A stretch of DNA of 48,608 nt from Clostridia bacterium (GTDB lineage: Bacteria > Bacillota > Clostridia > Christensenellales > UBA1242): the NCBI GenBank assembly GCA_045638465.1, contig JAZUBK010000017.1:1-48608 (forward strand), read 5' to 3'. Below are positions 1,351 through 5,593 of the stretch, one piece after another (the first letter of the stretch is position 1; the number at the start of each line of letters is the position of its first letter). The notes beneath the pieces are model-generated. The model worked only from the letters and a program-made list of their open reading frames with translations, ran no database searches and had not been told where the DNA came from. A program made the translations under genes and the position numbers.

Positions 1351-1671
1351 TTAATCTAAATTTGTGATTGTGTCTACAATTTCTTTTTCTTGTCTGTAAC
1401 CTACAAGTCTTTTTCTTTCTTCACCCTCATACAAAAAAGCCATTGTTGGTACACTCATAATACCAAATTTCTTTGCTATTTCTTCGCACTCATCAACATT
1501 AACCTTAACAATTAGGTAGTTTTCGTCCAATTTCTTTGCCACTTTTTCCAAAACCGGAGAAAGCATCTTACATGGAGGGCACCATGTAGCATAAAAGTCA
1601 ACAAGTACTGTATCTACAGATTTTACTAGTTCTTCAAAGTCTTTTTCATTAGCAATAACGATATTTGCCAT
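1351..1671 (-). CDS. trxA: Thioredoxin (WCPPC active site)
   Basis: VLVDFYATWCPPCK and cis-Pro motif SVPT. Start moved to the ATG at 1671 (MANIV) because AGGAGG lies just upstream. Confidence 0.93.
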   Translation of the reverse strand: MANIVIANEKDFEELVKSVDTVLVDFYATWCPPCKMLSPVLEKVAKKLDENYLIVKVNVDECEEIAKKFGIMSVPTMAFLYEGEERKRLVGYRQEKEIVDTITNLD

Positions 1672-1681
1672 AAAACACCTC

Positions 1682-2935
1682 CTATCTAAAAAGGTCAATA
1701 AGTTTATCAAAAGATACTTTTGACTCTTCACCGCTTTCCATATTCTTTACGGTCATCATATTATTTGCAAGTTCATCCCCACCTAAAACAAAAACATATT
1801 TTGCAGAGATTTTGTTTGCATATTTAAATTGAGCTTTGAAACTTCTATCCAAAAGGTCAGTTTCGCAAGTGATACCATTATTACGAAGTTCTTTTGCGAT
1901 TTCTACATCTTTGTTTGTTTCAAGACCAGGTTGTTTTGCGATATAAACTTGAACTTGATTTTCGTTTGGTATTTCTCTACCTGTTTGTTCTATTACCATA
2001 AGTAATCTTTCAAGTCCCATACCAAAACCAACAGCTGGAGTGTGAGGGCCAGACAATTCTTCAACTAAGTAATTGTATCTTCCGCCTCCACCAACAACGC
2101 CAACAGAACCCATACCCTCAATATTTGCAAAGAACTCAAATACTGTACGAGTATAATAGTCCAATCCTCTAACAACGTTGTAGTCTACTACATAGTTTAT
2201 CTTTGCATCATCAAGAAGTTTTAATAGTTTTGCAAAGTGCTCTTTGCAATCATCACAAAGATAATCTTTTAGCATAGGCCTATCTGCAAGAAGCTCTTGG
2301 CAGTGCTCTACCTTGCAGTCTAGTATTCTTAGTGGATTTGTACCAAACCTTCTGTTACAGTCACCACACATATCTTTTAGTCTTGGCTCAATATATGATT
2401 TAAGTGCCTCATTGTATTTTTTTCTACAATCGCTACAACCAATAGAATTGATGTGAACAACTATATCATCAAGACCAATGCTTTTCAAAAAGTCAGTGGC
2501 CAAAGATATTACTTCTAGTTCACATTTTGGGCTATCACTACCATAATACTCTATTCCAAATTGGTGATGTTGTCTTAGTCTTCCTGCTTGTGGATTTTCG
2601 TATCTAAAGATAGGGCTTACATAGTACATCTTAGTTGGTTGTGGGTTATTAAACAAACCATTTTCGATATAACTTCTAGCAACACCTGCAGTGCCTTCTG
2701 GCTTTAGAGTAATACTTCTATCACCTTTATCAAGGAAAGTATACATTTCTTTGTTTACAATGTCAGTGCTATTTCCGATACCACGAAGGAAAAGTTCTGT
2801 ATGTTCAAATACAGGAGTTCTTATTTCTTTTACATTATAAATCTTTGTAACTTTTCTTATTCTTTCTTCCAAAAAGTGCCATTTGTAAGCATTTTGAGGA
2901 AGAAGGTCTTTTGTACCCTTTGGAATTTCTATCAT
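1682..2935 (-). CDS. hisS: Histidyl-tRNA ligase
   Basis: PKGTKD, LKPEGTAG, FRYENPQAGRLRQHHQ, VRGLDYYT, GGGRY, GFGMGLER and a C-terminal anticodon-binding domain. Confidence 0.98.
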   Translation of the reverse strand: MIEIPKGTKDLLPQNAYKWHFLEERIRKVTKIYNVKEIRTPVFEHTELFLRGIGNSTDIVNKEMYTFLDKGDRSITLKPEGTAGVARSYIENGLFNNPQPTKMYYVSPIFRYENPQAGRLRQHHQFGIEYYGSDSPKCELEVISLATDFLKSIGLDDIVVHINSIGCSDCRKKYNEALKSYIEPRLKDMCGDCNRRFGTNPLRILDCKVEHCQELLADRPMLKDYLCDDCKEHFAKLLKLLDDAKINYVVDYNVVRGLDYYTRTVFEFFANIEGMGSVGVVGGGGRYNYLVEELSGPHTPAVGFGMGLERLLMVIEQTGREIPNENQVQVYIAKQPGLETNKDVEIAKELRNNGITCETDLLDRSFKAQFKYANKISAKYVFVLGGDELANNMMTVKNMESGEESKVSFDKLIDLFR

Positions 2936-2952
2936 AGTTTTTCTCCGTAAAA

Positions 2953-4278
2953 TTATTCTTCGCCACCAAATCCCATATTCTTTTTAGTAGATTTGACAAC
3001 ATTTCCTAAAATTTTCTTAACATATTCTTTATCTACAACAACGTCAATCATTGGGTGGTCGCCACTTGCGTTAAAGCTTATGTCCTCAAGCAAAGCCTCC
3101 ATTATAGTATGAAGTCTTCTTGCACCCAAGTTTTCATTGTTGTTATTTGCTTTTTCTGCATACTCTGCTATTTCTTTCAAAGCCTCTTCTTTCAAGATAA
3201 GGTTGATATTATCAACTTTCAAAAGTTCTTGATATTGTAATGTAACAGCATTTTGAGGTTCTGTCAATATCTTTAAAAATTCTTTTGCAGTCAAATTATC
3301 AAGTTCTACTCTTATTGGGAATCTGCCTTGGAACTCCGGTATAAGGTCATCCATCTTGCTAACGTGGAAAGCACCTGCGGCAATAAACAATATAAAGTCT
3401 GTTCTTATTGTTCCATATTTTGTTGATACTGTACAACCTTCTACTATAGGTAGAATATCTCTTTGTACACCCTCTCTACTTACGTCTGGACCACCACGAT
3501 TACCTTTTCCTGCAACCTTGTCTATCTCATCTATAAAGATGATACCTTCTTGCTCAGCTCTTGAGATAGCTTCGCTATTTACACTGTCAAGATCGATAAG
3601 TTTGTCGCTTTCTTCCGCCATCAAACTTTCTCTTGCTTGTTTAACAGTCATCTTTCTTTTCTTCTTTCTTCCGCCACCAAAAGCATCGCCAAAGATGTTT
3701 CCTATATCTAGTTCTACACCACTGCCTGGCATAAGATTTAGTTGTTTAGGGGCTTGTTTTATCTCTAATTCGATAAGTTCATCGTCATAGTCGCCTCTAA
3801 TTAATCTTTCTAAAACAGTATGCTTAAACTCTTCTTCGTCGGTGATAACATCTGCAGCAGCCTTTTTGATAGGAAAGACAATATCAAGAAGTTTGTTATT
3901 TACTATGGGTGTTGCCTTTGCTGCAACCTCTGATAGTTTTTCTTCTTTGACAAGTCTTACTGCAGTTTCTACCAAGTCTCTAATCATGCTCTCTACATCT
4001 CTACCAACATAACCAACTTCGGTAAATTTTGTAGCTTCTACTTTGATAAAAGGTGCTTTGACAAGACGAGCAAGTCTTCTTGCTATTTCTGTTTTACCTA
4101 CACCAGTAGGACCTTTTAGTATGATGTTTTTTGGTGTGATCTCTTCTCTAAGTTCTACAGGAAGTTTGCTTCTTCTGTATCTGTTACGCAAAGCAATAGC
4201 AACTGCTTTTTTTGCTTTGTCTTGACCGATAATATATTTGTCAAGTTCGGTAACAATTTGTTTTGGTGATAAATTCAT
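2953..4278 (-). CDS. hslU: HslU/ClpY AAA+ ATPase with a non-canonical C-terminus
   Basis: IIGQDKAKKAVAIALRNRYRR, Walker A GPTGVGKT, pore loop GYVG, Walker B IFIDEIDK, SREGVQRD, PEFQGRFPIRVEL and GARRLHT. Confidence 0.97.
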   Translation of the reverse strand: MNLSPKQIVTELDKYIIGQDKAKKAVAIALRNRYRRSKLPVELREEITPKNIILKGPTGVGKTEIARRLARLVKAPFIKVEATKFTEVGYVGRDVESMIRDLVETAVRLVKEEKLSEVAAKATPIVNNKLLDIVFPIKKAAADVITDEEEFKHTVLERLIRGDYDDELIELEIKQAPKQLNLMPGSGVELDIGNIFGDAFGGGRKKKRKMTVKQARESLMAEESDKLIDLDSVNSEAISRAEQEGIIFIDEIDKVAGKGNRGGPDVSREGVQRDILPIVEGCTVSTKYGTIRTDFILFIAAGAFHVSKMDDLIPEFQGRFPIRVELDNLTAKEFLKILTEPQNAVTLQYQELLKVDNINLILKEEALKEIAEYAEKANNNNENLGARRLHTIMEALLEDISFNASGDHPMIDVVVDKEYVKKILGNVVKSTKKNMGFGGEE

Positions 4279-4279
4279 A

Positions 4280-5593
4280 TTAAACCTCTGTTTCTTTAAT
4301 TATTCTTTCTAGTTCTAAAATTGACCTTTCGGCATACATTTGTTTTTTCAATTTATCGTCTTTTACACGCTCAGTCAATGGCTCAATTATTCCGTAATTT
4401 GAATTCATCGGTTGGAAACCATTTGGACTTGCATTTGTAATATAATTTATTATAGCACCAAACATTGTTTTTGGCGATAAAATAAATGGTTTTTTGTTAT
4501 TAATCATTTGATATACATTTATCGCAGCTATAAGGCCACTAAATGTACTTTCTAAATACCCCTCTACACCACTAAGTTGACCCGCAACAAAGATATTTTT
4601 ATCACTCTTTAGTTGGAAGGTATTTGTTAGCAAGGTCGGAGCGTTAATATATGAGTTTCTATGCATAACTCCATATCGTACAAAATTTGCCTTTTCAAGA
4701 CCAGGAATCATACTAAATACTCTTTTTTGCTCTGGGTATGTAAGGTTTGTTTGAAAACCTACTAAATTATAAAGTCTGTTTTCATTATCTTCTTTGCGTA
4801 ATTGCACTACAGCATATGGCTTTTCGTCTTTGTGTGGATTTGCAAGGCCCACAGGTTTTAGCGGACCAAATCTTATACTATCTTCTCCACGCTTTGCCAT
4901 TACCTCTACAGGCATACAACCCTCAAAGACTTTTTTATTTTCAAACTCATGAAGTTTGACAGACTCTGCGTTTATAAGTTCGTTATAAAACTTTAGGTAC
5001 TCTTCTTTGTTCATCGGACAGTTGATATAGTCGCCATTTCCTTTGCCATATCTATCCCCTACAAAGGCAATGTCCATATTTATACTTTCTGCAGTAACAA
5101 TAGGACTAGAAGCGTCAAAAAAGTATAAATATTCGCTGTTTATTTTTAATTGCAAATCTTTGATTATCTCATCGCTACTAAGAGGACCTGTTGCAATAAT
5201 TACAACTTCGTTTTCCGGAATCTTAGTTACTTCTTCGTTTATAATTTCAATATTATCAAAAGATTTTAAAGTCTCTGTTATATATTCAGAGAATTTATCT
5301 CTATCTACCGCCAGTGCTCCACCTGCAGAAACAGAGTGTTTGTATGCGGCCTTTATAATCAAACTATCAAGCATTTCCATTTCTTTTTTCAAAAGACCTG
5401 AGCTTGTAGTTAGTTCTTTAGCTTTAAGGCTATTGCTACAAACAAGTTCTGCAAAGTTTGTATTTTTGTGTGCAGGAGTAAACTTATGAGGTTTCATTTC
5501 ATAAAGTTTTACATTTACTCCCCTTTTGGCTAGTTGGTAAGCAGCTTCGCTCCCTGCAAGACCTGCGCCAATTATTGTAACATTATTTGTCAT
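4280..5593 (-). CDS. trmFO: Folate/FAD-dependent tRNA m5U54 methyltransferase TrmFO (Gid)
   Basis: IIGAGLAGSEAA, AELVCSNSL, FEGCMPVE, VGFQTNL, RYGVMHRN and AGQLSGVEGY. Confidence 0.97.
   Translation of the reverse strand: MTNNVTIIGAGLAGSEAAYQLAKRGVNVKLYEMKPHKFTPAHKNTNFAELVCSNSLKAKELTTSSGLLKKEMEMLDSLIIKAAYKHSVSAGGALAVDRDKFSEYITETLKSFDNIEIINEEVTKIPENEVVIIATGPLSSDEIIKDLQLKINSEYLYFFDASSPIVTAESINMDIAFVGDRYGKGNGDYINCPMNKEEYLKFYNELINAESVKLHEFENKKVFEGCMPVEVMAKRGEDSIRFGPLKPVGLANPHKDEKPYAVVQLRKEDNENRLYNLVGFQTNLTYPEQKRVFSMIPGLEKANFVRYGVMHRNSYINAPTLLTNTFQLKSDKNIFVAGQLSGVEGYLESTFSGLIAAINVYQMINNKKPFILSPKTMFGAIINYITNASPNGFQPMNSNYGIIEPLTERVKDDKLKKQMYAERSILELERIIKETEV

Follow-up and report, generated by a model that had tools for sequence, protein, structure and literature searches.

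HslU with a ClpP-docking-like tail in Clostridia that lack HslV: a candidate partner for ClpP

Can an unfoldase whose own peptidase has been lost be re-wired to another one? HslU-HslV and ClpX/A/C-ClpP are the textbook fixed pairs of unfoldase and peptidase; the two peptidases are unrelated and their rings differ in symmetry. The question is raised by an hslU gene on contig JAZUBK010000017.1 (assembly GCA_045638465.1) of a Clostridia bacterium (GTDB lineage Christensenellales; UBA1242), which was analysed over a stretch of 48,608 nucleotides, hereafter the window. We found no HslV in this genome, and the encoded HslU ends in a Gly-Phe (GF) motif of the type found in the ATPases that dock on ClpP. 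From sequence comparison across relatives, we consider it probable that this HslU, having lost HslV, now docks on ClpP via its GF tail.

The window HslU and the proteases of its genome

The window HslU is a member of the HslU family by the equivalog model TIGR00390 (573.3 bits, cut-off 362.45). It is not a ClpX, as the ClpX model TIGR00382 gives 200.6 bits against a cut-off of 370.75. Residues 4-433 of the 443 in Escherichia coli HslU (1g4a_E) align to residues 3-428 of the window protein (E 7e-131), and the I-domain region is spanned by this one continuous alignment, so the inserted I-domain is present. The translation contains Walker A (G56-T63), the pore loop (G89-Y-V-G92), Walker B (I246-K254), the arginine finger region (G318-R-F-P321) and sensor-2 (G385-A-R-R-L-H-T391). 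These AAA+ motifs are invariant in a 17-sequence alignment (A2) and, for the regions shown, in 69 relatives. An earlier note, made by a model from the letters of this DNA, had described the Walker A/B, GYVG and sensor motifs as intact, as the translation and the TIGR00390 score bear out.

The end of the protein is different. HslU residues 3-430 cover profile positions 1-433 of 441 in TIGR00390, leaving positions 434-441 unmatched, and 13 residues remain unaligned after the end of the E. coli HslU alignment. The tail reads ...LGNVVKSTKKNMGFGGEE*, i.e., ...KKNMGFGGEE, in place of the canonical D-L-x-K-Y-[IV]-L; the HslV-activating tail in its broader form among relatives, D-[LI]-x-K-[YF]-[IV]-[LIM], is likewise absent. 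Neither of the two other frames at the hslU 3′ end holds a canonical tail, which agrees with the earlier note on both the GF tail and the lack of a hidden canonical one. The tail does contain the hydrophobic-Gly-Phe/Leu tripeptide of ClpP-docking ATPases, as M435-G436-F437, on a tail rather than on a loop. G436 and F437 are invariant in alignment A2. Given the amino-acid make-up of the window's long open reading frames (ORFs), the chance of an [MILV]GF within 10 tail positions is 0.0068. What appears to be new here is a known unfoldase family with a known ClpP-docking motif at a new position.

The source genome (G000) is a 1.15 Mb assembly in 58 contigs, 97.84% complete. It has no TIGR03692 match for HslV, no match to the proteasome family (PF00227) even at E ≤ 10, and no Lon at E ≤ 1e-20. 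The set of ATP-dependent proteases found, on contigs C45, C57 and C18, is a reduced one: ClpP together with its candidate ATPases ClpX and a ClpC-type protein, and FtsH. The single clpP lies on C45, another contig than hslU, and adjoins clpX. This ClpX scores 604.8 bits on TIGR00382 and has the docking loop ..STLGFGSGVK..; the ClpC-type ATPase (817 amino acids) has the loop ..SASLGFSNMG... An hslV elsewhere in the genome, which the earlier note had named as fatal to its idea, was found neither here nor in the two nearest species, both of which are 99% complete.

Loss of hslV and tail type among relatives

HslV is present in 34 of 41 genomes (the source and 40 relatives). It is missing from the source genome, from the two nearest species (G001 and G002) and from four genomes that are also without HslU. 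The HslUs of G001 and G002 are 88% and 96% identical to the window HslU and end in KKSIGFNNED and KKSMGFGGEE. Three further species of the same genus (G003-G005; HslU 77% identical) have the order trmFO-hslV-hslU-hisS, and their HslUs end in ...HDLRKYVL. In the window, the gap from the trmFO stop to the hslU start is 1 nucleotide and that from the hslU stop to the hisS start is 17 nucleotides, so there is no space for hslV between the two neighbours, as the earlier note had claimed and the ORF coordinates confirm. When the junctions of G000-G002 are compared to those of G003-G005, the trmFO end of the source genome (...KETEV* plus a ribosome-binding stretch) resembles the hslV end of the sister species (...TVEEV*). 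Thus, hslV was cut out cleanly, with hslU still translationally coupled to trmFO. In the sister species (loci L011-L013), the trmFO/hslV and hslV/hslU junctions carry a similar short word, consisting of a ribosome-binding stretch, a stop and ATGAA. Recombination between the two words would remove hslV exactly, which may explain the recurring clean deletions of hslV in the family.

Of the best 120 database homologues of the window HslU, 31 are 87% or more identical to it, and every one of these close orthologues has the tail K-[KRT]-x-[MI]-G-F-x-x-x-x. Their GF pair never changes, although almost all positions around it do, and the earlier note's concern that the motif might not be conserved among orthologues does not apply to them. 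Of the other 89 homologues, 85 are canonical, two end in ...RKFML, one (P0117) ends in ...KMVVGFKGK, and one (P0116) has an odd short tail. P0116 is a 433-residue HslU with the tail ..KCHNTKRNYKFK, neither canonical nor GF, and branches at the base of the g1/g20/g204 clade. It may represent an evolutionary intermediate, a truncated protein or a fault of the assembly.

In a family-level survey of 401 genomes, 38 were without HslV (18 of these 38 were deduced from gaps in the HslV listing). All 24 HslV-less genomes that keep an HslU away from contig ends have an [MILV]GF tail. By genus these are three genomes of g1 ([MI]GF), four of g37 (MGF), one of g204 (VGF, identical to P0117), eight of g212 (..KKK[ILV]PLGFN..) and eight of g226 (..P[KR][IM]GFY..). 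Another four HslV-less genomes have a canonical HslU tail; in each of them hslU lies directly at the end of a contig, which makes an unassembled hslV probable. The remaining ten (G006, G021, G428, G447, G572, G667, G674, G682, G728, G766), some of them incomplete, are also without HslU. Thus, hslV loss in the family has two outcomes: hslU is lost too, or hslU is kept with a GF tail. Where the tails of HslV-positive relatives were read, 32 of 32 (27 + 5) are canonical, including those of HslV-bearing members of g212 and g37. The co-occurrence of [ILVM]GF tails with hslV loss that the earlier note had proposed to check is therefore positive, at 24/24 HslV-less GF tails versus 32/32 canonical tails with HslV.

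The pattern was also followed outside the family. An order-level survey of 401 genomes (HslU at E ≤ 1e-60, HslV at E ≤ 1e-10) found HslU in 383 and HslV in 381, with five genomes HslU-positive and HslV-negative. In two of the five, both of them poor assemblies, hslU encodes a canonical tail and lies at the edge of a contig. The rest are the source genome and two of another genus of the same family, with HslU ends ..KIKMGFTIE and ..KIKMGFQAN; thus no good HslU-positive, HslV-negative genome was found outside the source family among the 401 of the order, and three were found within it. A sample of 80 unrelated HslU loci spread over many phyla contains 77 with canonical tails and one that runs off its contig. 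The canonical loci comprise 74 with hslV at most 2.5 kb upstream, one at a contig start, and two without hslV in the locus. The two other loci of the 80 have no hslV, and their tails are ..KPRMGFYEV and ..KHLKITGFSNME. The latter belongs to Candidatus Coproplasma avicola (locus L136, HslU at about 2486-3832), outside the source family, and reads T-G-F. Its nearest HslUs are canonical and 79-83% identical, and its genome has a single ClpP and, at E ≤ 0.001, no match for HslV. Of 300 genomes scored across the class, 67 gave an HslU match. This match extends to the final position of TIGR00390 in 66 of them and breaks off at position 433 in the source genome alone.

How often did the tail arise? 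A maximum-likelihood tree of 69 HslUs (24 GF and 45 others) was built with the tail columns removed. Each GF group sits beside canonical HslUs of its own genus. The tail label needs six changes, and well-supported branches force all six, compared to a mean of 20 when labels are shuffled. None of 200 bootstrap trees permits a single GF origin. In a 74-row tree, with the additional Coproplasma lineage and four canonical rows, seven changes are needed and supported branches force six; one badly extracted row (L140, with a very long branch) lowers the supports, making the 69-row tree the cleaner one. By these trees, the GF tail arose at least six times in the source family, and seven times if the Coproplasma lineage of another family is counted. 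In the 69-HslU tree, GF clades sit on longer stems than their canonical sisters do, e.g., 0.18 vs. 0.059 in the source genus.

The tail could be a neutral relic: once hslV was gone, a frameshift or read-through would have created it in a gene that is itself being lost. The hslU 3′ end of the source genome can be aligned to ancestral tail codons with a 4-nucleotide gap, sharing AAT ATG out of frame, which would fit such a history; the shared words are few and A-rich, and we regard the alignment as too weak to claim a frameshift origin. Decay does not account for six to seven independent origins of one motif, with a chance of about 0.007 each, nor for a GF pair that stays the same in 31 of 31 orthologues whose flanking residues vary. 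The ORFs are also intact across whole genera (eight genomes each in g212 and g226). For hslU, the ratio of nonsynonymous to synonymous substitution rates (dN/dS) ranges from 0.039 to 0.071 in that clade of the source genus which has no HslV, and from 0.043 to 0.053 in its HslV-bearing sister clade; these values are rough, as dS is near saturation. As judged by these ratios, hslU remains under strong purifying selection without HslV. Convergence and selection together contradict the neutral relic, which we consider very improbable.

ClpP as the candidate receptor of the tail

The geometry of the tails is informative. In 47 of 47 canonical tails, 18 residues follow the D-K-x-Y-V motif, with an aromatic at position 16 and then two residues. 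In 25 of 25 GF tails there are 20-26 residues, with Phe at position 17-22 followed by 2-6 residues, and Lys/Arg before the Phe. The window HslU has 21 residues after the D-K-x-Y-V motif and four after the Phe of M-G-F. GF tails are thus longer and continue past the Phe, so the C-terminal carboxylate is not placed as in canonical tails.

Sung and Song (2014; PMC4106860) describe the HslU tail as a peripheral element that plugs into HslV, and liken it to the IGF loop of ClpX. According to the same study, the tail of unbound E. coli HslU is packed in between the subunits, where its aromatic side chain faces hydrophobic residues. This raises another explanation for the GF tail, that of a stand-alone unfoldase or chaperone: HslU would work without a peptidase, and the tail would serve HslU itself, e.g., in the inter-subunit cleft, stabilising or regulating the hexamer. 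The persistence of purifying selection without HslV and the burial of the canonical tail in free HslU would both fit, as would the weak score of the predicted complex with ClpP. The canonical tail already fills the tucked-in role, making its replacement needless, and a tail serving HslU itself does not predict repeated convergence on a ClpP-docking tripeptide, lengthening by 2-8 residues, or likeness to the ClpX loop of the same cell. The ten relatives that dropped hslU along with hslV are also what would be expected if HslU alone were of little use. Weighing these points, we find a stand-alone HslU unlikely, though it deserves more weight than any other competitor to docking on ClpP.

Docking on ClpP requires a ClpP, and clpP is present as one gene in the source genome, in each of 23 other GF genomes searched and in the Coproplasma lineage (25/25 GF genomes); it is also single in five canonical relatives. 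The ClpX loops of GF genomes read LGFG.. or LGFN.., and the HslU tail resembles the local ClpX loop, with MGFGG beside LGFGSG in g1 and PLGFN beside SLGFN in g212. The tail might instead dock HslU on some other, unrecognised partner, such as a peptidase, an adaptor or a membrane protein. We know of no receptor other than ClpP for the tripeptide. Such a partner would be compatible with ClpP being an inferred rather than an observed receptor, with the T-G-F of one lineage, and with the lack of a co-evolution signal in ClpP. It is at odds with the source genome, in which no proteasome-family or Lon gene was found, and with the surroundings of hslU: in five lineages no conserved new neighbour and no new peptidase gene was found beside it, the neighbours being housekeeping genes only (topA, trmFO, hisS, a UvrD-like helicase, ThiF and NifS). 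Moreover, hydrophobic pockets of ClpP bind the loops of Clp ATPases that bear such tripeptides, and are the sole receptor for them named in the literature consulted (PMC8745299; PMC11448347). A partner other than ClpP is therefore improbable in our estimate.

Fold prediction was carried out with three ClpP copies and HslU residues 405-441, in three runs with three controls. The median score was 0.52 (runs 0.39, 0.53, and 0.52), compared to 0.01 for the best control, a verdict of weak support. In calibration, 58 of 80 solved complexes passed the mark, as did 2 of 110 pairs that had been mismatched; scores no higher than 0.60 were seen in only seven of those 80 complexes and in both passing mismatches. 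Contact agreement between the runs was at least 42%, and the partner predicted local distance difference test (pLDDT) at least 36. The modelling of the tail peptide with ClpP that the earlier note had suggested thus leans in favour of docking by its score, with no contacts reported. An AlphaFold2 model of the whole HslU, made with the shallow 17-row alignment A2, had a mean pLDDT of 44.2; it is unusable and carries no structural argument here.

The co-occurrence with hslV loss, the convergence, the selection, the tail geometry, the presence of ClpP, the likeness to the ClpX loop, and the fact that no other receptor was seen together favour docking on ClpP. The following course of events is proposed. 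The hslV gene was deleted from the operon, and the HslV-activating tail was exchanged for a longer, flexible, Lys-rich tail with the hydrophobic-Gly-Phe motif. HslU would have stayed a working ATP-dependent unfoldase. Its six tails would leave the ring near the rim of the side that faces the protease, where canonical tails enter HslV, and would plug into the hydrophobic pockets of the ClpP heptamer at its apical face. Substrates would then pass from HslU to ClpP, which would thus have three partner ATPases in a cell without Lon and HslV. The analysis establishes the loss of hslV, an intact HslU under selection, the convergent GF tails and the presence of ClpP; we infer that the GF tail has ClpP as its receptor and that the two assemble into a 6:7 complex able to degrade proteins. 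On the wider question we lean, if only slightly, toward a hybrid protease of HslU and ClpP that arose naturally in gut Clostridia with small genomes. It would have come about by at least six or seven switches from HslV (a threonine protease, six-fold) to ClpP (a serine protease, seven-fold), each by deletion of hslV and rewriting of about 10-18 C-terminal residues to give a Lys-rich tail with hydrophobic-Gly-Phe at its end.

Several points weigh against docking on ClpP. Known ClpP partners have the tripeptide within an internal loop instead of a C-terminal tail. HslU fits a partner of matching six-fold symmetry, and we know of no HslU that works across a 6:7 mismatch. The ClpP-tail prediction is weak, and its pass may echo solved ClpX-ClpP structures. 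A comparison of the ClpPs of GF genomes with those of in-genus canonical genomes, with five controls only, found no consistent convergent change. The HslU body likewise shows few convergent changes, with one column (residue 379 in the source genome) altered in four of six lineages. The Coproplasma lineage has T-G-F, in which the residue ahead of GF is not hydrophobic. Among the 363 genomes of the family that have HslV, tails were read one by one in a minority. Finally, independent pairs of HslV loss and tail type agree in five of five cases on supported branches, for a sign test p of 0.0625. This p is the minimum possible for five pairs, and when all branches are used six or seven of seven pairs point in the same direction.

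Two further observations concern the HslU body. A Pro that Sung and Song (PMC4106860) link to the tail in E. coli HslU is not conserved even in canonical relatives and gives no signal. At positions 3100-3140 of the window (minus strand; HslU residues of about 376-384, before sensor-2), canonical relatives have E-N-E-T-S-E-N-[IL]-G-A-R-R-L. The E-T pair is altered in all six GF lineages (NN, ND, EN, E[MVI], KN, and KN), and some canonical HslUs vary there too.

How would such a machine compare to known ones? PAN and Rpt proteasomal ATPases have HbYX-type C-terminal tails, with an aromatic in the penultimate region, that enter pockets of the peptidase ring across a 6:7 mismatch. The likeness to the GF tail is one of principle only; the family, the motif and the peptidase all differ. 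Like HslUV (ClpYQ; structures 1g4a and 1do0), the window HslU has the whole ATPase body including the I-domain region and the nucleotide and pore motifs, and its gene is at the ancestral operon position next to trmFO/topA. Unlike HslUV, whose partner gene is normally directly upstream, no HslV was found in the genome, and in place of the fixed 18-residue tail there is a 21-residue tail with M-G-F and four more residues. Like the ATPases of ClpXP, ClpCP and ClpAP, it has a tripeptide of the IGF/LGF/VGF class and a ClpP in the same genome, and by analogy the motif would sit on a flexible, peripheral, protease-facing element (PMC4106860). Unlike in those ATPases, where the motif is on an internal loop of the large AAA+ domain, it is on the C-terminal tail. 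The carrier is HslU and not ClpX, ClpA or ClpC, and its docking on ClpP is a prediction.

In the literature searched, from which most subscription-journal papers were absent, we found no report of an HslU docking on ClpP, of a GF-tailed HslU, or of a conserved HslU without HslV. If ClpP docking is true, the partner choice of compartmental proteases would be set by a short, portable peptide that can re-evolve repeatedly, and little sequence would be needed to re-wire unfoldase-peptidase machines. The C-terminal tail would join the internal loop as a way of presenting the ClpP-docking motif, and ClpP would gain a new natural partner with the substrate-selecting I-domain of HslU. It would also explain how genome-reduced bacteria (~1 Mb, no Lon, no HslV) keep the substrate range of HslU minus the peptidase gene. 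The natural tails (MGF, IGF, LGF, VGF, and TGF, with varied linkers) are in effect a ready mutational series from which the rules of ClpP docking could be learnt. Should the receptor not be ClpP, seven-fold convergence on one tripeptide would still mark an unrecognised function of HslU.

The locus and its surroundings

The features of the locus are listed in Table 1. The earlier note had placed the end of hslU at 4280, which is 2 nucleotides too far. On the minus strand, the gene order is dprA, topA, trmFO, hslU, hisS, thioredoxin, and nifS.

Table 1. Coordinates of hslU, its neighbours and its tail elements in the window.
Feature	Position	Strand	Remarks
hslU	2953..4278	minus	441-amino-acid AAA+ unfoldase plus stop codon; TIGR00390 573.3 bits
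trmFO	4280..5593	minus	Upstream neighbour of hslU; NF003739 666 bits
hisS	1682..2935	minus	Downstream neighbour of hslU; TIGR00442 498 bits
Junction of trmFO 3′ end and hslU start	4279..4300	minus	Read as scar of hslV excision
Replaced HslU C-terminal tail, residues 429-441, KSTKKNMGFGGEE	2956..2994	minus	Beyond the last residue aligning to solved HslU
M435-G436-F437 hydrophobic-Gly-Phe tripeptide, candidate plug for the ClpP hydrophobic (H) pocket	2968..2976	minus	From translation

Neither a tRNA gene nor an Rfam family at the gathering score was found in the window (1-48608). The thioredoxin ORF (1351-1731, minus strand) has a GTG start as listed, which gives a 50-nucleotide overlap with the end of hisS; its true start is probably further downstream. 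The genes of the window are dense, mostly on the minus strand, and of housekeeping type.

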